Shown here piece by piece: positions 2,157 to 18,230 of a DNA stretch of 19,782 nucleotides. Every line of letters begins with the position of its first letter. Positions within the stretch are counted from its first letter, which is position 1. Under the pieces are notes generated by a model. That model saw only the letters and a list, made by a program, of their open reading frames with translations. It was not told where the DNA came from and did not search any database. This stretch comes from a virus (lineage: Duplodnaviria > Heunggongvirae > Uroviricota > Caudoviricetes): IMG/VR virus record IMGVR_UViG_2711768053_000018, positions 1-19,782 of that record, one strand, 5' to 3'. The position numbers were made by a program, and so were the translations under genes.

Positions 2157-2755
2157 TACGCAAACTCCAGCAGCTGCGCGGCCACATTTTCGACTTGTTC
2201 CGGAGAGGAAAATTTACGGAACAGAATCCAGTTCCACAGCACATTCAGTACAGATTTATAAACCTGCTGAAACACGGTTTCGTCCATATTCGCAAACGCG
2301 ATAGATTTCGCCCGACGCCCACGGCTACCATCAGGATAAAGATGCTCGGTGTAAAATCCGGCCTGAATGGTTACCCACTCGCGGAAAGCCTCAAACGATT
2401 TTAGCAATGCCGTATCCCGGGTTCTGCGTGTCGCAACTGTATTTAGATATTGCTCTGCGGCATCACTCAGGGCTGGTGTGTGTTCCCGACCAACTGATTC
2501 GCACAGGTAATCCACGAAACCAGACAGCAGTTCTCGTTCGCGAGGCGTGATCGCCCCACCGACCGGAGTCCAGTAATCGAATCCCAGTTGCAGGAGTTTG
2601 AAAAAACGCTTGTGGAATGCGTAGTTACGCACACGCTTAAAGTCTGCGTGTATCCACTCACCTATTTTGATTTGATGCAGAAAATCGCAACTCTCCGGCG
2701 TCGCCGGGAGAAGTAAACCAGAAGAGGTTTGTTTGACCAGTTGTATATGCGCCAT
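2156..2755 (-). CDS. nin-region phage protein (DUF1367-like)
   Basis: 199-aa ORF translationally coupled to the downstream YbcO-like gene; family assignment from memory only. Confidence 0.5.
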   Translation of the reverse strand: MAHIQLVKQTSSGLLLPATPESCDFLHQIKIGEWIHADFKRVRNYAFHKRFFKLLQLGFDYWTPVGGAITPRERELLSGFVDYLCESVGREHTPALSDAAEQYLNTVATRRTRDTALLKSFEAFREWVTIQAGFYTEHLYPDGSRGRRAKSIAFANMDETVFQQVYKSVLNVLWNWILFRKFSSPEQVENVAAQLLEFA

Positions 2756-3028
2756 TTCTCAATCTCTCGATGGCGCAGTGCAGCAGATGCCAGTTGTTCA
2801 GGCTGACGTATAAAGTATAAATAAACTGATTCCAGTGTAAAGCCCCCACATTGATGGAATAAAAACCAAACAACAAATTGCTGGGATAAAAACAACGCTT
2901 ATTATTAAAAGCGGTTAAACAAATTAAATTTTAATGTTATGCAAATCTGCCAGATCACCATAATATCTCATTTGAAAACCGCTGAAATAACAACCCTATC
3001 AGGATTAATCATATTAAGGTGAGTAAAT

Positions 3029-3115
3029 ATGGAAAACAACAAATCTGCACATTACGTTCCTTTTTTATCTGTAATACTTTTTGTTTTATGCTGTGCGTGG
3101 GCATTATTTTTATAA
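3029..3115 (+). CDS. 28-aa hydrophobic small protein candidate (MENNKSAHYVPFLSVILFVLCCAWALFL)
   Basis: ATG at 3029 preceded by AAGGTGAG with 5-nt spacing; polar N-terminus then about 19 hydrophobic residues; followed by a hairpin at 3137-3152. Below the 60-aa track cutoff. Confidence 0.3.
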   Translation: MENNKSAHYVPFLSVILFVLCCAWALFL

Positions 3116-3135
3116 AAATATTCACAGATAAAATA

Positions 3136-3153
3136 TACCCGCCGAAGCGGGTT
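3136..3153. terminator. Bidirectional terminator candidate between the convergent small ORF and the ATPase/TOPRIM cassette
   Basis: Stem ACCCGC/GCGGGT with loop CGAA (3137-3152), T-rich on the plus side and A/T-rich on the minus side. A second hairpin GCCTGAT/ATCAGGC lies at 3175-3197. Confidence 0.35.
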
Positions 3154-3218
3154 TAGTGCGGGTGCGTTGAGGATGCCTGATAAAGCTTACATCAGGCCGA
3201 TTTCACTGATTTCAGACC

Positions 3219-3752
3219 TTATTCCACCAAGCGGAAATGCCTAGCAAAATTTGACTTCATATCCGCAACAGGCTTTAACGCATCGTGTAGCCCCCGGGAA
3301 AACCACAGATGCTCTCGAATCCCCAGCTTAATTAATTTACCCAGCGAATCATTACATGCTATAAAATCCCTTTTAAAATCATTAATTCCGGATGTTTTCC
3401 TTCCGCAAAAACAATAAATCAACTGAGGAATGGATTTATTGCAGCACCAGCTCAATTCTTCTTCAAAATTACTTGTTTGCTGAAACAAATATATCCGATG
3501 CCCTCTGGAACGTAAAAATTTCACGTTTTCTATAAATCTTGCCGATTGCTCAACCTGATCTGAATCAAACACAACAAATATATCACTACCCTTTGGTATT
3601 GCCATCGCATACCTATGTATCCGATCCTGCCAGAAATTCTTCTTAACAACATCCTTCACAGCAATAATCTTATCTCTCTTCATTTTTTTGAACAGAGATA
3701 ATTCTGTTTCACCTTCAACGAAAACGATTGTAACTGTTGCTCTTGCTGCCAT
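3219..3752 (-). CDS. Small TOPRIM-like (OLD-type) nuclease-domain protein, partner of the upstream ATPase
   Basis: 177 aa. N-terminal IVFVEGETE (conserved Glu of TOPRIM strand 1) and VVFDSD (DxD motif). Start ATG lies 1 nt after the ATPase stop (TAAaATG). AT-rich by eye. Confidence 0.6.
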   Translation of the reverse strand: MAARATVTIVFVEGETELSLFKKMKRDKIIAVKDVVKKNFWQDRIHRYAMAIPKGSDIFVVFDSDQVEQSARFIENVKFLRSRGHRIYLFQQTSNFEEELSWCCNKSIPQLIYCFCGRKTSGINDFKRDFIACNDSLGKLIKLGIREHLWFSRGLHDALKPVADMKSNFARHFRLVE

Positions 3753-9559: not shown

Positions 9560-10472
9560 GGTTCACCCCCTTGCTGACTGGTTTAACCTGCGCCCTGACG
9601 TGATTTACGTGACGGGCGAATTTCTGCTCCCACTGAACCTGCGTGAAAACTTTCCCCTCCGCTGCCCAGTAGTCCCGGAAGGCGGCAAGTTCAGCTGGTG
9701 TAAATTCCGGCTCCGGCAGAGCCACTCCCCACAGAGCTGCCCGCCGTCGAAAATCCAGCGACGGATGCCAGCCATCAGTCATCGGAAATTTCCCGATGGG
9801 TTCGTTCAGGCCTTCCAGGTAATCAGGTTCCGCTGTCTGCAACGGCACGCCATTTGCCTCACTGGCCGGAGCACTCTCGCGCACGCGCGCGTTATGTGTG
9901 GGGTTTATATATCTGTTATCTGTTATCTGGATACCGCATGACAAAGCGTTAGCCTTATCCTTAGGCTTATCCTCAGGCAAAGGGATTGCCTTATCGAATG
10001 CCATCCCCAAAGCCTCAGAAACCCCATAGGACGCGGCTCTCAGCGATTCCCTAGCCTCCCATTTGAGAGGACAATCAGGAATTAAAGCGAATGCCTTTGC
10101 CCAGGATTTAATGACATTTATCGAGTTTGGCGGATTGTGTTTCGCAGCATTCGGGAGCCAAAAAACTCTGGCTTTGATATCTGCTTTCACCATGCCAAGA
10201 TTCATGGCTTCGCCTAAGGCTAAGTCAAAGGCTTCGATATCCCACCCCAACTCTTCAGCCATTGCTGCCCGCCCGGCTTTAAACAACCCAGGAATAATCC
10301 CGGTAAATGGACTGGTCAGCAGATAAATAAACAAACTCTGTCCACTTGGAGGCAGAGGAGATAACGCCCTAAATTTGGGATCATCCCATATCGTTATTTT
10401 TACCTTGCGATAAGGCTCATTGTTTGCCTTAGTTTTTGGCATGGGATTTGGCATATTTTTAGCCTTAACCAT
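9348..10472 (-). CDS. Replication initiator (O-like) with a DnaT-like C-terminal region
   Basis: Track ORF 9348..10526 begins with a TTG; first ATG is at 10472 (MVKAKNMP...) with GAGG at 5-nt spacing. Contains an internal iteron/AT-rich region, as in lambda O. C-terminal region resembles the DnaT-type domain from memory. Confidence 0.6.
9906..9996. repeat. Putative replication origin: iteron-like repeats plus AT-rich tract inside the O-like gene
   Basis: Three copies of G(C/G)CTTATC(C/G) at 9952-9960, 9964-9972 and 9988-9996 (12- and 24-bp spacing), then an AT-rich tract with tandem ATCTGTT repeats at 9906-9933. In the direction of O translation, iterons precede the AT-rich tract, as in lambda ori. 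Confidence 0.45.
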
Positions 10473-11112: not shown

Positions 11113-11535
11113 TTAATGAACAACAACAGAATCGCCGGACGAACCACCGCCGCTGAAATGCGCTTTCCGGTAAACGGCCTGGACTGCATCATCATGCGCA
11201 TCAATTGCCGTACTCAACGCTTCCTGCGCCGCCAGTAATGCACGGCGTTCCAGGGTATCGAAGATGCAGAGTCGGTGACGCAGCTCGCGCGGAAGGATTG
11301 CCAGAATTGCTGGGATCAGCTTCTGAATTTTTTCTCTTTGCGTTTTCGTTTCACCTTTCAACCAACGGTGATAGATATTCTGCTGATTGTTCCAGTCCTT
11401 GCCTGGAACCAGGGGCAATTCGCCGCCCCCCTGGCGCAGATATTCTTCAGTAATTGCATTGGCTACCCATGCCTGCCCTTTTTCGGCTGCCAGGGCAAAC
11501 AACACTGATTCGATGTGCTCATGCTTGATTTTCAT
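11113..11535 (-). CDS. ydaT: YdaT-like protein (Rac early-right operon)
   Basis: 140 aa, same length as K-12 YdaT from memory, and positioned directly after ydaS. Confidence 0.75.
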   Translation of the reverse strand: MKIKHEHIESVLFALAAEKGQAWVANAITEEYLRQGGGELPLVPGKDWNNQQNIYHRWLKGETKTQREKIQKLIPAILAILPRELRHRLCIFDTLERRALLAAQEALSTAIDAHDDAVQAVYRKAHFSGGGSSGDSVVVH

Positions 11536-11557: not shown

Positions 11558-11854
11558 TCAGGTATGATCAAATGAGGATTTGTTACTGTCATTTAGTTGC
11601 TTCACTGACATATTCTGCGAACAACATGCCGAACGTCGTAAATATGACCAGTCAATATCAGGACGAAGCTCTTCGCACAGAACCTCACCTCTTGTTGCTC
11701 GTTCAATTGCTGGACATCTCTCGGCAGGCAATTGACGTACCCCTTTGATCCATTGATTTACGCTTGGAGGTGATACACCTAAAAGCCTAGCCATTGCTGA
11801 TTGCCCACCGACAACAGCACAAGCTTGCTTGAATGAATAGTTCTCTTTTTTCAT
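11558..11854 (-). CDS. ydaS: YdaS-like Cro-type HTH protein
   Basis: 98 aa with HTH segment QACAVVGGQSAMARLLGVSPPSVNQW; divergent from racR across the operator region; GGAG RBS. Confidence 0.8.
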   Translation of the reverse strand: MKKENYSFKQACAVVGGQSAMARLLGVSPPSVNQWIKGVRQLPAERCPAIERATRGEVLCEELRPDIDWSYLRRSACCSQNMSVKQLNDSNKSSFDHT

Positions 11855-11880
11855 CGAATGAACTCCAAAAACACACAGAA

Positions 11881-11955
11881 ATATTAGGCGACGCCTAATA
11901 TAAATGTCAATAGGCTATGCCTAATGCGATAAAGATAGGGATTGCCTAATGCAAT
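11881..11955. promoter_or_regulatory. OR-like operator/promoter region between racR and ydaS
   Basis: Perfect 21-bp palindrome ATATTAGGCGACGCCTAATAT (11881-11901) and further TTAGGC/GCCTAA half-sites. Minus-strand promoter candidate TTGACA (11910-11905), 18-nt spacer, TAATAT (11886-11881) aimed at ydaS. Confidence 0.55.
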
Positions 11956-11977
11956 GAGCATAGGAGAATATTAAGCA

Positions 11978-12454
11978 ATGCTTAGTGGTAAAGACTTAGG
12001 CCGAGCGATAGAGCAGGCCATTAACAAAAAAATCGCATCGGGATCCGTCAAATCAAAGGCGGAGGTCGCACGCCACTTCAAAGTCCAACCACCATCAATT
12101 TATGACTGGATTAAGAAAGGCTCCATAAGTAAAGATAAACTTCCAGAATTATGGCGTTTCTTTTCTGATGTTGTTGGTCCAGAGCATTGGGGGCTTAACG
12201 AATACCCCATACCAACCCCCACCAATTCAGATACAAAAAGTGAACTTTTAGATATAAACAACCTTTATCAAGCAGCCTCTGATGAAATTAGAGCGATTGT
12301 AGCTTTCCTGTTATCTGGAAATGCTACAGAACCAGATTGGGTTGACCACGATGTTCGCGCCTACATAGCAGCGATGGAAATGAAAGTGGGTAAGTATCTG
12401 AAAGCTCTAGAATCTGAACGGAAAAGCCAGAACATCACAAAAACTGGAACTTAA
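11978..12454 (+). CDS. racR: Prophage repressor RacR-like
   Basis: 158 aa (same length as K-12 RacR from memory). N-terminal HTH-like segment, AGGAGA RBS, flanked by operator clusters on both sides. Confidence 0.8.
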   Translation: MLSGKDLGRAIEQAINKKIASGSVKSKAEVARHFKVQPPSIYDWIKKGSISKDKLPELWRFFSDVVGPEHWGLNEYPIPTPTNSDTKSELLDINNLYQAASDEIRAIVAFLLSGNATEPDWVDHDVRAYIAAMEMKVGKYLKALESERKSQNITKTGT

Positions 12455-12529
12455 ACTTATATGGTCTGACGGAAAACTCCTGGATTCCGTTATTTAACCC
12501 CCCCATCATTTTCTCCTGTCGCCATCACC

Positions 12530-12595
12530 TATTAGGTTACGCCCAAAACATTAGGCATAGCCTATTGACAATCAATTAGGCATTACCTATAGTTC
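12530..12595 (+). promoter_or_regulatory. OL/pL-like operator and near-consensus sigma70 promoter driving the + strand operon toward int
   Basis: TTGACA (12565-12570), 17-nt spacer, TATAGT (12588-12593). TTAGGC-type half-sites at 12532, 12551 and 12576. Contains a 22-mer identical to the OR promoter module. Confidence 0.6.
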
Positions 12596-12762
12596 CAGCA
12601 TACCACCCACCCCGCCACACAGAACGCCGGGCAATACTTCGAGTTACCAGGCAGTGGTAAGGGGTTAAGTAGCCAGCCCGAGGCGTATGAACATGACGGC
12701 GGGATTCAAATTTTGCAGTGCAGCAGTTAGTTCCGCCACCCGGCGTTAAGGGGAGAGATAAG

Positions 12763-12897
12763 ATGGTGCATTACGAAGTAGTTCAGTATTTGATGGATTG
12801 TTGCGATATCACTTACAGCCAGGCTGTACAGGCTCTACGCAGCAACGACTGGGATCTCTGGCAGGCAGAAGCCTCTATCCGCAACAACAAGATGTGA
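12763..12897 (+). CDS. Small protein, YdaG-like (44 aa)
   Basis: ATG 12763 with GGGGAGAG upstream; reads MVHYEVVQYLMDCCDITYSQ...RNNKM. Position matches the Rac ydaG/ydaF pair next to racR (from memory). Below the track cutoff. Confidence 0.4.
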   Translation: MVHYEVVQYLMDCCDITYSQAVQALRSNDWDLWQAEASIRNNKM

Positions 12898-12907
12898 GGT
12901 GCGAAAA

Positions 12908-13060
12908 ATGCAAAAAATCGACCTCGGCAATAACGAATCCCTGGTGTGCGGCGTGTTCCCCAACCAGGATGGAACGTTCACCGCCATGACTTATACCAAA
13001 AGCAAAACATTTAAAACAGAAACAGGCGCACGTCGCTGGCTTGCCAGAAATACTTGCTAA
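12908..13060 (+). CDS. Small protein, YdaF-like (50 aa)
   Basis: ATG 12908 with GAGGTG 7 nt upstream; reads MQKIDLGNNESLVCGVFPNQ...ARNTC. Below the track cutoff. Confidence 0.4.
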   Translation: MQKIDLGNNESLVCGVFPNQDGTFTAMTYTKSKTFKTETGARRWLARNTC

Positions 13061-17839: not shown

Positions 17840-18049
17840 TTTATGACAAAAACTTTGAGATATGACGATGTTAAACCATGTCCGTTTTGTGGTTGTCCAT
17901 CAGTAACGGTGAAAGACATTTCAGGATATTACCGGGCAAAATGCAACGGATGCGAATCCCGAACTGGCTATGGTGGAAGTGAAAAAGAAGCGCTCGAAAG
18001 ATGGAATAAACGAACTACTGAAAATATTAATGGAGGCGTTCATGTATAA
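17840..18049 (+). CDS. ralR: Restriction alleviation protein RalR (Lar)
   Basis: Start at ATG 17840 (MTKTLRYDDVKPCPFCGCPS...); Cys-rich; matches Rac RalR from memory. Confidence 0.8.
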   Translation, partial: FMTKTLRYDDVKPCPFCGCPSVTVKDISGYYRAKCNGCESRTGYGGSEKEALERWNKRTTENINGGVHV

Positions 18050-18230
18050 AATTACCGCTACAATTGAAAAGGAAGGTGGCACTCCTACTAACTGGACAAG
18101 ATATTCAAAATCTAAACTAACGAAATCAGAATGCGAAAAAATGCTCTCAGGTAAAAAAGAAGCAGGCGTTTCCAGAGAGCAGAAAGTAAAACTGATAAAT
18201 TTTAATTGCGAGAAACTTCAGTCCTCGTGA
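18042..18230 (+). CDS. ydaC: YdaC-like protein
   Basis: ATG 18042 (MYKITATIEKEGG...) overlapping the ralR 3' end, with GGAGG 6 nt upstream. Confidence 0.6.
   Translation: MYKITATIEKEGGTPTNWTRYSKSKLTKSECEKMLSGKKEAGVSREQKVKLINFNCEKLQSS

Follow-up and report, generated by a model that had tools for sequence, protein, structure and literature searches.

RacR-type operator dyads at both promoters flanking racR in a Rac-type Escherichia coli prophage: a probable lambda-style immunity region

Genes at the locus

The window (the whole stretch of 19,782 nucleotides analysed here) covers a Rac-type E. coli prophage with ydaT, ydaS (cro-like), racR, ydaG, ydaF, kilR, recET and xis-int. The prophage repressor gene racR (11978..12454, + strand) encodes a 158 amino acid protein with an N-terminal HTH domain and a C-terminal oligomerisation domain. 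On one side, ydaS (11558..11854, - strand; predicted ORF and Pfam) encodes a Cro-like regulator; it stands at the head of the rightward (PR-type) operon, in which the cII-like ydaT (11113-11535) comes next. YdaS matches YdaS_toxin (PF15943; 2.6e-31) and P22_Cro (3.4e-9), and a YdaS-family gene is divergent from racR in all distant relatives; the divergent Cro-type regulator that opens the rightward operon of a lambdoid immunity region is hence seen both in the Pfam matches and in the gene order kept in these relatives. On the other side, the leftward operon starts with ydaG (12763-12897, + strand) and ydaF (DUF1391; 12908-13060, + strand), and continues with kilR, ydaE, a racC-like gene, recE, recT, ralR, xisR and intR.

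For RacR the Pfam search returned a weak match to HTH_17 (E 0.002) and no Peptidase_S24 domain (PF00717). RacR consequently does not have the HTH plus S24 composition of the self-cleaving CI/LexA-type family, and without the S24 domain it would be CI-like in its action at the DNA while standing outside that protein family. RacR has been reported to be an octamer by SEC, with the recognition helix at residues 38-47 (PMC11014345), and residues 1-75 are nearly invariant among the relatives that share the dyad described below. Just after the racR stop codon there is a hairpin (12467..12492, + strand; AACGGAA...UUCCGUU followed by AUUU; -11 kcal/mol, z -1.7), which could possibly be a weak terminator insulating racR from the promoter downstream. 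In the locus L001 both arms of this hairpin carry an insertion, a G on one and a C on the other.

The repeated 22-mer, the palindrome and the dyad consensus

An earlier note on this DNA claimed that one 22-mer occurs at both promoters flanking racR, and CATTAGGCATAGCCTATTGACA is indeed present as exact copies at 12549-12570 (+) and 11905-11926 (-), with no third site in the window at ≤3 mismatches. No match was obtained in any of 200 dinucleotide shuffles, which excludes a chance origin of the pair. Each copy was said to supply a -35 hexamer; TTGACA ends both copies and the promoter scan pairs both with a -10 hexamer. The perfect palindrome noted at 11881-11901 reads ATATTAGGCG-A-CGCCTAATAT, i.e. 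two fully (100%) complementary 10-nt arms on either side of a single central base (10+1+10), and it lies over the -10 of the ydaS promoter, TAATAT being the complement of 11881-11886.

A dyad with the consensus ATTAGGC-n3-GCCTAAT is found at both promoters; the bare half-site TTAGGC is not enriched across the window (10 observed vs 8.3 expected), and the signal therefore resides in the dyads and their clustering. When the whole window was scanned for TAGGC-n3-GCCTA and mismatches were counted, five dyads had ≤1 mismatch, all of them within the two clusters flanking racR. Dyads with two mismatches at 9962 and 10204 were discarded, being inside a replication-gene ORF and as many as chance predicts.

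Among 86 Rac-type loci the two 22-mers are identical (22/22) in 29, differ at one position in 50 and at 2-3 positions in seven. In K-12 MG1655 the pair differs at one spacer base, and the palindrome is reduced to the 15-bp core TTAGGCGACGCCTAA. The exact 22-bp identity and the full 21-bp palindrome are thus an allele of this strain and not conserved properties. We also considered concerted evolution of the two copies, for which a C->T change at both copies in L001 is suggestive, but changes are uncoordinated across the 86 loci and the idea was dropped. The shared 22-mer is a "-35 dyad plus TTGACA" unit, placed at both promoters in opposite orientation.

Operators on the ydaS side

The promoter scan identified PydaS on the - strand as TTGACA-18-TAATAT (11910 to 11881; 10/12). 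The operator that the earlier note composed of the 22-mer and the palindrome was confirmed on this side, and its anatomy is fuller than described, with four dyads whose centres lie at 11891, 11917, 11942 and 11978; the one at 11978 covers the racR ATG. Specifically, OR dyad 1 (11881..11901; core TTAGGC-GAC-GCCTAA, centre 11891) covers the PydaS -10 TAATAT and corresponds to the published O1, where protection appears first, at the lowest RacR concentration; moreover, PydaS is abolished when TAATAT is changed to CCCGGG (PMC9638921). OR dyad 2 (11905..11926, - strand, centre 11917) is the 22-mer copy fused to the -35 TTGACA (complement of 11905-11910), and the site is present in 86/86 Rac-type loci. 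OR dyad 3 (11934..11950; TAGGG-ATT-GCCTA, centre 11942, one mismatch) constitutes an extra 25-bp unit relative to the distant relatives and is part of a direct repeat (11910-11934 / 11935-11959); in the distant relatives the racR side has no more than three dyads, at -60, -35 and 0. OR dyad 4 (11970..11986; TTAAGC-AAT-GCTTAG, centre 11978, two mismatches) lies over the racR start codon as a putative autoregulatory site. All relatives keep a dyad at position 0, and in the distant ones its left half is perfect; the dyad over the racR ATG is a published operator that is also an off-target site of the Csp231I C-protein (PMC9638921).

This half of the region is already published for K-12 Rac (PMC5700373, PMC9638921), including the kinds of RacR experiments that the earlier note had suggested (EMSA, footprint and reporter). 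On the K-12 ydaS side, EMSA with three complexes, ChIP-qPCR and repression of gfp by RacR have been reported (PMC5700373), as have TSS mapping, a RacR DNase I footprint and an ATTAGGC logo, with the half-site ATTAGGC arranged as [T/A]TAGGC-n3-GCCTA[T/A] (PMC9638921). In that study RacR occupied O1 and O2 at about 30-250 nM. K-12 YdaS is an autorepressor at the racR-ydaS intergenic region (IGR) and is reported not to repress racR (PMC9638921). The K-12 element is the same as the one in the window: it consists of TTAGGC/GCCTAA repeats, four inverted repeats in total, with O1 covering PydaS and another operator covering the racR ATG. The two sequences differ only in linker and flank bases.

Operators and a candidate promoter downstream of racR

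Downstream of racR the promoter scan gave a PL-type site on the + strand, TTGACA-17-TATAGT (12565 to 12593; 11/12), which is the sole 11/12 sigma-70 match in the 19.8-kb window, with 0.27 expected per shuffle. This site and PydaS are the two best promoter matches, and they coincide with the two dyad clusters. Judging from the spacing, transcription is predicted to start near A12600. OL dyad 2 (12549..12570, + strand, centre 12558) is the other 22-mer copy, fused to the -35 TTGACA (12565-12570), and OL dyad 1 (12575..12593, + strand; TTAGGC-ATT-ACCTAT, centre 12583) overlaps the -10 TATAGT (12588-12593). Both are present in 86/86 Rac-type loci and are identical in K-12, and they match the published RacR consensus with zero (OL2) and one (OL1) mismatches. 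The right half of OL1, ACCTAT, is non-consensus and may be a compromise with the -10 hexamer. OL dyad 3 (12531..12547; TTAGGT-TAC-GCCCAA, centre 12539, two mismatches) is degenerate and was rejected as a third left operator: its right half is variable, it passes a 2-mismatch cut-off in 25/86 loci, and it is absent in K-12 and in the distant relatives, so that a function for it is doubtful. From the sequence, we infer RacR binding at the OL dyads, activity of the PL-type promoter and YdaS binding at OL.

The K-12 Rac papers (Krishnamurthi 2017; Wisniewska 2022; Gucwa 2023) are limited to the racR-ydaS intergenic region, and we found the downstream dyads and promoter mentioned in none of them. 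We found no description of a Rac PL/OL promoter and dyads downstream of racR in the literature, although an earlier one may exist. Depletion of RacR is reported to derepress ydaG, ydaF, kilR, xisR and intR 40-100-fold, and racC is among the genes derepressed on RacR loss (PMC6765115, PMC11014345). A RacR-repressed PL would explain the derepression of ydaG, ydaF, kilR, xisR and intR. Derepression as seen by RNA-seq/qPCR could also be indirect, via YdaS or YdaT or by racR read-through; a Rho-dependent terminator lies within racR, and read-through past it may be an alternative source of leftward RNA (PMC4150792).

Conservation of the two operator clusters

None of the 86 Rac-type loci lacks any of the four OR dyads, OL1 or OL2, whereas the intergenic DNA around them is polymorphic; variable columns make up 13/72 in the half-sites vs 75/196 elsewhere (Fisher p=0.002). 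The spacing between OR1 and OL1 is 690-693 bp in these loci. More distantly, the downstream OL module is present in 5/6 RacR relatives with 57-75% identity, where TAGGC-n3-GCCTATTGAC follows the repressor gene in Mixta, Morganella, Proteus, Achromobacter and Pigmentiphaga. At both promoters of the distant relatives the arrangement is TTAGGC-n3-xCCTA|TTGAC ... TTAGGC-n3-GCC|TAATAT, and this module is accompanied by a RacR N-domain that hardly varies and by a gene of the YdaS family. It is kept even though the OL-OR distance varies from 641 to 2204 bp. The Klebsiella locus L009 has OR dyads and no OL pair within 2.5 kb.

In the Achromobacter relative, PF00717 (1.2e-13) lies behind the RacR-type N-domain. 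One DNA-binding domain and operator set is consequently common to non-cleavable (E. coli RacR) and S24 self-cleaving (Achromobacter) repressors, a tidy example of modular repressor evolution.

The leader and the boundary of the immunity cassette

Between the PL-type site and ydaG lies a conserved untranslated leader of the leftward operon (12597..12762, + strand), where the immunity cassette has its left mosaic boundary. This leader follows at least ten different promoter/operator types, including the validated promoter PL933P of prophage CP-933P (see below), and in all of dozens of different cassettes a TTGAC-type promoter sits at the leader junction. Loci with other cassettes (L002 and at least nine other types) have a different repeat, with its own copy at both ends, and it is exactly at the PL -10/TSS that they become homologous to the window again. 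The repressor and its operators are thus passed on together, as a single specificity cassette with PL and PR as its limits.

The leader has no Rfam match even at E≤10; its MFE z-score is -1.5, and covariation does not support a structure (covariation term -0.08; 1/35 pairs compensatory). A 20-codon ORF in the leader was rejected, its frame being shifted by an indel in a common variant while the nucleotides stay conserved.

Interpretation and alternatives

The proposal of an OL/OR-type bipartite immunity region agrees with our data: racR lies between two outward, consensus-like promoters, and the -35 and -10 of each are embedded in dyads of one consensus. Outward early promoters flanking the repressor gene, as in lambdoid phages, are present at the sequence level, with PydaS alone mapped experimentally, and several dyads of the same consensus overlap the -35 and -10 at both promoters. 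We consider it very probable that the region is a lambda-style immunity region of a Rac-type lambdoid prophage, with RacR sites at both promoters. PydaS, the PR equivalent, would drive ydaS (cro-like) and ydaT (cII-like), and the PL equivalent, 95-140 bp past the racR stop, would drive ydaG, ydaF, kilR, recET and xis-int. At each promoter a 17-bp RacR-type dyad shares its final two bases with the start of the -35 hexamer, and another dyad, 25-26 bp from the first, holds the -10 hexamer within its right half. With the two hexamers embedded in two dyads, two RacR dimers per promoter would occlude RNA polymerase, and the two further racR-side dyads, one of which covers the racR ATG, would serve autoregulation. 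The layout is the ordinary lambda design with a different repressor, and no new principle; the OR half is known and the OL half is an expected new instance.

It could be argued that the downstream cluster is an auxiliary operator only, i.e. a loop anchor that tightens PydaS repression and tunes racR, with the leftward genes transcribed by racR read-through. That Rho-dependent termination in racR is reported to protect cells from kilR implies that read-through exists (PMC4150792), and an octameric RacR would suit a loop anchor. We nevertheless regard this as very unlikely, given that TTGACA-17-TATAGT is the best sigma-70 match of the window, that the -35/-10 hexamers are conserved with the dyads in distant relatives, that PL933P, its positional homologue, is active as a promoter and can be repressed, and that dozens of cassettes put a TTGAC-type promoter at the leader junction. 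Mainly YdaS, rather than RacR in the lysogen, might be what the downstream dyads are for, as a lytic shut-off of the leftward operon; CP-933P YdaS represses PL933P ~100-fold and K-12 YdaS autorepresses in the racR-ydaS IGR (PMC9638921). The dyad sequence is the same as in the RacR footprints at OR (PMC9638921), however, lysogens express RacR but no detectable YdaS with the leftward genes silent (PMC5700373), and these genes are derepressed when RacR falls (PMC6765115, PMC11014345), which leaves a predominantly YdaS-directed role highly improbable. By analogy with lambda, RacR and YdaS most likely both bind the downstream dyads.

Two other readings concern the 22-mer itself. An accidental origin, through recent gene conversion or duplication or by chance, with no function beyond the individual operators, would fit the exact identity in only 29/86 loci, and also the differences, which affect spacer positions and the outermost two bases and are uncoordinated between the copies. 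It is likewise highly improbable: besides the shuffles, which exclude chance, ~19 constrained positions (TTAGGC, GCCTA, TTGACA) are kept at both sites in relatives of 57-75% protein identity, so that functional constraint accounts for the core similarity. In this strain no more than the final 2-3 identical bases are incidental, in keeping with the immunity-region reading. That perfect inverted repeats lie 622 nt apart with one gene between them could also bring to mind a long-range RNA stem around racR, or recombination sites at the ends of an invertible segment. This we find barely credible. Both promoters fire outward, and a transcript would therefore carry at most one 22-mer arm; moreover, arm mismatches are common and uncompensated, racR has the same orientation with respect to ydaS and the leader in 86/86 loci, and there is no adjacent invertase gene.

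Within the immunity-region reading, we tentatively suggest, as a possibility to which we give less than even weight, that RacR octamers bridge OL1-OL2 and OR1-OR2 in a putative, very short ~0.65-0.69 kb loop around racR alone. The Mruk group ascribed the octamer to the four IGR repeats and called the RacR regulon, including the ydaFG operon, uncharacterised (PMC11014345). If the loop forms, the reported octamer would reflect OL-OR looping and not occupancy of the four IGR repeats, and the loop would set how tightly PydaS and PL are repressed as well as racR autoregulation via the dyads at -36 and the ATG. PL, as one direct target of RacR, would then explain the "distant" control of kilR, recET and xisR-intR, and the RacR level would be linked to Rac excision.

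Rac is carried by E. coli K-12, and RacR, YdaS and YdaT are being actively studied for their toxicity, for their cross-talk with controllers of restriction-modification and in connection with prophage excision; in recent papers RacR control of kilR, ydaFG and xisR-intR appears as remote or uncharacterised. A candidate RacR-operated PL 100 bp past racR offers a direct, testable explanation for this control, and with OL-OR looping it adds another way to interpret the RacR octamer.

Comparison with known systems

The region resembles that of lambda: the repressor gene has an outward early promoter on either side, several 17-bp dyads sharing one consensus overlap the -35 and -10 at both, a cro-like gene is divergent, the repressor mRNA is leaderless and the repressor forms octamers. 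Operators in lambda are spaced 23-24 bp centre to centre, and the 25-26 bp found here is near that value. It differs from lambda in that RacR has no Peptidase_S24 and is reported to be SOS-insensitive and Gifsy-type, in that Rac has four OR dyads, one of them over the start codon, and in the OL-OR distance, ~0.65-0.69 kb vs ~2.4 kb in lambda. In addition, no N/nut system is evident in Rac, where a conserved 165-nt leader takes its place, and YdaS is reported not to repress racR.

Another counterpart is CP-933P of E. coli O157:H7 (PaaR2 / YdaS / YdaT; PR933P, PRM933P, PL933P), a sister Rac-like prophage with an octameric repressor. Its PL933P has the same junction and the same conserved leader as the PL of the window, and the reverse primer used to clone PL933P exactly matches the promoter type preceding this leader. 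PL933P has been validated experimentally as an active promoter and is repressed ~100-fold by PaaR2 and by YdaS. CP-933P differs in having another repressor and another operator (GTTTAGTAA repeats), and its immunity cassette adds the paaA2-parE2 toxin-antitoxin pair, which places OL and OR further apart.

Finally, the repressor in the DicA/DicC system of Qin is likewise non-cleavable and belongs to the same broad group (Gifsy/DicA/RacR). There, the leftward dicBp lies just past the repressor gene with repressor dyads and with a DUF1391 gene read first, and one dyad type is present on both sides of dicA. The Qin operator is of the TGTTAGC/GCTAACA type, which sets it apart from that of Rac, and K-12 Qin retains only the last ~45 nt of the shared leader.

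Locus and gene order

The window represents a Rac-type lambdoid prophage of E. coli, and its segment 11400-13000 shares 99.4% identity with strain EC11 and approximately 97.7% with other racR-bearing strains. The genes ydaT (11113-11535) and ydaS (11558-11854; YdaS_toxin 2.6e-31, P22_Cro 3.4e-9) are located on the minus strand, and racR (11978-12454; weak HTH_17 match only), ydaG (12763-12897) and ydaF (ending at 13060; DUF1391) on the plus strand. Downstream of ydaF, on the same strand, kilR, ydaE, a racC-like gene, recE, recT, ralR, xisR and intR follow, adjoining ttcA. In K-12 MG1655 the arrangement is the same, with the orientation reversed.

Two prophage-borne tRNA genes, tRNA-Gly(tcc) (815-889) and tRNA-Thr(tgt) (893-968), both on the minus strand, are present at the late-region end of the window; in the matching stretch the closest genome match, EC11, carries lysis genes and no annotated tRNAs, so the window differs there. 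Opposite ralR is a full-length RalA antitoxin sRNA gene (18048-18226, minus strand; Rfam RF02694, 218 bits), and the two constitute a type I toxin-antitoxin pair inside the leftward operon. Directly 3' of the racR stop codon, a hairpin at 12467-12492 (+; AACGGAA...UUCCGUU followed by AUUU, with an MFE z of only -1.7) might serve as a weak terminator and insulate racR from the predicted downstream promoter; in one diverged locus (L001) the hairpin past racR has an extra G and an extra C on opposing arms, and the stem is kept.

Dyads and promoter matches on both sides of racR

Two exact copies of the 22-mer CATTAGGCATAGCCTATTGACA are present, at 12549-12570 (+) and 11905-11926 (-); no third copy with up to three mismatches was found in the window and no match in 200 shuffles. 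The segment 11881-11901 is a perfect palindrome (10+1+10). A promoter scan gave TTGACA, a 17-bp spacer and TATAGT (11/12) on the plus strand, the sole 11/12 match in the 19.8-kb window (expected 0.27 per shuffle), and TTGACA, an 18-bp spacer and TAATAT (10/12) on the minus strand, one of six such matches (expected 4.0). Hence, the coordinates and descriptions in the earlier note are correct and far beyond chance.

Alignment of the repeats resulted in a 17-bp consensus dyad, ATTAGGC-n3-GCCTAAT. With at most one mismatch, TAGGC-n3-GCCTA is found at five sites in the window, every one within the two clusters; a two-mismatch cut-off adds 11978 and 12539, plus two sites elsewhere at chance level. 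The racR-ydaS cluster (OR) has dyads centred at 11891 (-87, counted, as for all dyads, relative to the racR ATG), 11917 (-61), 11942 (-36) and 11978 (0), which overlap the -10 of the ydaS promoter (PydaS), its -35, neither element, and the racR start codon, respectively. Downstream of racR (OL), OL1 (12583, +605) overlaps the -10 and OL2 (12558, +580) the -35 of the PL-type promoter, and OL3 (12539, +561) is a weak site. The -35 hexamer of either promoter begins in the final two dyad bases (GCCTA-TTGACA), and the -10 hexamer falls within the right half-site of the neighbouring dyad, 25-26 bp off (GCC-TAATAT and ACC-TATAGT). The 22-mer corresponds to this '-35 dyad plus TTGACA' unit, with one copy in each orientation. 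Given this geometry, one dimer per dyad would exclude RNA polymerase at both promoters.

The number of OR dyads is four in E. coli Rac (-87, -61, -36, 0) and three in distant relatives (-60, -35, 0). The extra dyad fits duplication of a 25-bp unit, given the direct repeat 11910-11934/11935-11959 (25-bp units, 72% identical), and judged from the sequence the extra unit looks like a tandem duplication.

The racR-ydaS side in K-12

The OR half is already known experimentally. In K-12, the 123-bp racR-ydaS intergenic region has three GCCTAA/TTAGGC repeats, and RacR forms three EMSA complexes on it, is enriched there in ChIP-qPCR and represses a fusion of the region to gfp (Krishnamurthi et al. 2017, PMC5700373). 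A single ydaS start site with TTGACA/TAATAT was mapped, mutation of TAATAT abolishes its activity, and three racR promoters were mapped, one of them leaderless; RacR footprints protected the ydaS promoter first, at the lowest concentration, an ATTAGGC logo was derived, and the operators were named, one having the racR ATG as spacer (Wisniewska et al. 2022, PMC9638921). Four inverted repeats, RacR octamers (by SEC) and a recognition helix at residues 38-47 were subsequently reported (Gucwa et al. 2023, PMC11014345). For this half, the experiments proposed in the earlier note have thus been published, with results as predicted (PMC5700373, PMC9638921).

Conservation of the dyads

Among 86 Rac-type loci, drawn from genomes and IMG/VR, OL1, OL2 and all four OR dyads are kept in every one (86/86). 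The DNA around the dyads is polymorphic, with 40 OR sequence variants and 31 OL variants, and variable columns amount to 13/72 in half-sites versus 75/196 in other intergenic positions (Fisher p=0.002). OL1 and OL2 of K-12 are identical to those of the window. The two 22-mer copies are identical (22/22) in 29 of the 86 loci, and differ by one mismatch in 50 and by two or three in seven; differences fall at the centre of the spacer or in the outermost two bases, and changes in one copy are not coordinated with changes in the other. The K-12 copies disagree at a single spacer base, and the palindromic part of O1 there is limited to TTAGGCGACGCCTAA. The degenerate OL3 passes in 25/86 loci; neither K-12 nor the distant relatives have it. 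The OR linkers (within 11855-11977; loci L003-L095) are hypervariable (the 40 sequences being 123-bp intergenic regions), despite RacR proteins that are 92-100% identical and fixed half-sites and PydaS hexamers; this may reflect promoter-strength tuning or simply relaxed constraint.

RacR relatives (57-75% identity) in Mixta, Morganella, Proteus, Achromobacter and Pigmentiphaga have upstream dyads at -60, -35 and 0 and, past the repressor gene, a pair 25 bp apart, TTAGGC-n3-GCCTATTGAC ... TTAGGC-n3-GCCTAATAT. In distant relatives the OL-OR distance ranges from 641 to 2204 bp, and a divergent YdaS-family gene accompanies the dyad module. Where the module occurs the RacR N-terminal domain is nearly invariant, with P39, S40, I41, D43, W44, I45 and K47 invariant. 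In Klebsiella sp. R390 (L009; RacR relative 62% identical) three OR dyads are present at 2435-2501, and a search of the 2.5 kb downstream gave no OL pair; the left operator of this locus is either further away or lost. A racR locus encoding a 100% identical RacR protein is also present on a 5.2-kb contig binned as 'Candidatus Nanosynbacter' (JARKOR010000130.1); this contig almost certainly comes from E. coli and was wrongly binned into the MAG.

The predicted downstream promoter and the leader

In the Rac literature searched we found no mention of dyads or a promoter downstream of racR, and an earlier description may exist; ydaG is named in the Rac papers only among derepressed genes, and the RacR regulon including the ydaFG operon was called uncharacterised in 2023 (PMC11014345). 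The OL/PL half of Rac thus appears to be an expected, so far undescribed instance of a textbook arrangement. RacR depletion raises ydaF, ydaG, ydaE and racC ~40-fold and kilR, ydaC and ralA >70-fold (PMC6765115), and xisR and intR ~100-fold (PMC11014345). Every one of these genes is downstream of the PL-type promoter and, with the exception of the antisense sRNA gene ralA, on its strand. OL/PL would directly explain the reported 'distant' RacR control.

A conserved leader (12597-12762, +; ~165 nt) separates the PL-type promoter from ydaG. Segment 11400-13000, used as query, matched 3836/5426 E. coli genomes, most of them at the leader. Among 194 leader-bearing stretches, at least ten unrelated promoter/operator types, each around a TTGAC -35, join the leader at one shared position; in E. 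coli prophages the leader follows at least ten unrelated repressor/operator cassettes. For CP-933P, PL933P was cloned with a reverse primer that exactly matches the 'GTTTAGT' type preceding the same leader; PL933P is active, and PaaR2 and YdaS each repress it ~100-fold. In another locus (L002), the repressor between ydaT and ydaF is a different one, and the repeat flanking it on either side also differs (GTAC type). For the leader we detected no Rfam family, significant MFE or covariation support; its C-rich, G-poor 5' end (ACCACCCACCCCGCCACACAGAAC) could, speculatively, be a Rho-loading site. K-12 Qin keeps only the final ~45 nt, before ydfA.

Model and alternatives

The immunity region is very probably a lambda-style switch. 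In this model, RacR dimers bound at OR1/OR2 and OL1/OL2 would block access to PydaS and PL, racR would be autoregulated through the dyad at -36 and the one over its ATG, and YdaS probably acts on the same sites as RacR. RacR binding at OL and a start site near A12600 are predicted from the sequence. The earlier note's interpretation as a bipartite OL/OR-type region is supported by dyads at both promoters, the published OR data and the comparative OL evidence.

We disfavour the alternatives that the downstream cluster is a loop anchor devoid of promoter activity, that the 22-bp identity is incidental (gene conversion or chance), that the 22-mers form an RNA stem or bound an invertible segment, and that the sites serve YdaS only. 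Against these rivals argue conservation of the -35/-10 hexamers and homology to PL933P, as well as uncompensated arm mismatches between the 22-mers, uniform orientation in the 86 loci, and RacR-dependent silencing in lysogens having no detectable YdaS.

The OL/PL half also allows the RacR octamer to be read differently, as one that may hold an OL-OR loop of ~0.65-0.69 kb; the OR1-OL1 spacing is 690-693 bp in Rac-type loci.

Relation to known systems

RacR has been grouped with SOS-insensitive, antirepressor-controlled repressors (Gifsy, DicA, RacR), and it differs from the CI/LexA family, of which it is no member, in having no S24 domain. In an Achromobacter MAG (L011) and in Pigmentiphaga (L012), the repressors combine a RacR-type DNA-binding domain at the N-terminus (74-75% identical over 77 aa) with a non-RacR C-terminus, and the same TTAGGC dyads flank both promoters. 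Since the L011 repressor (2501-3598, 365 aa) carries a C-terminal Peptidase_S24 self-cleavage domain (PF00717, 1.2e-13), one DNA-specificity module is common to cleavable and non-cleavable repressors. An Actinobacillus phage, vB_Apl-pPE4 (PP818812.1; recorded host Actinobacillus), has a Rac/Qin-like early region with ydaT, an HTH regulator, a DicA-type repressor, the leader (76% identity), Kil and exonuclease VIII, and its own repeat, of the CACGATATGTGAG type, at both promoters. The layout around racR matches that of CP-933P and Qin (dicA-dicBp), and the region would work like lambda OL/OR.
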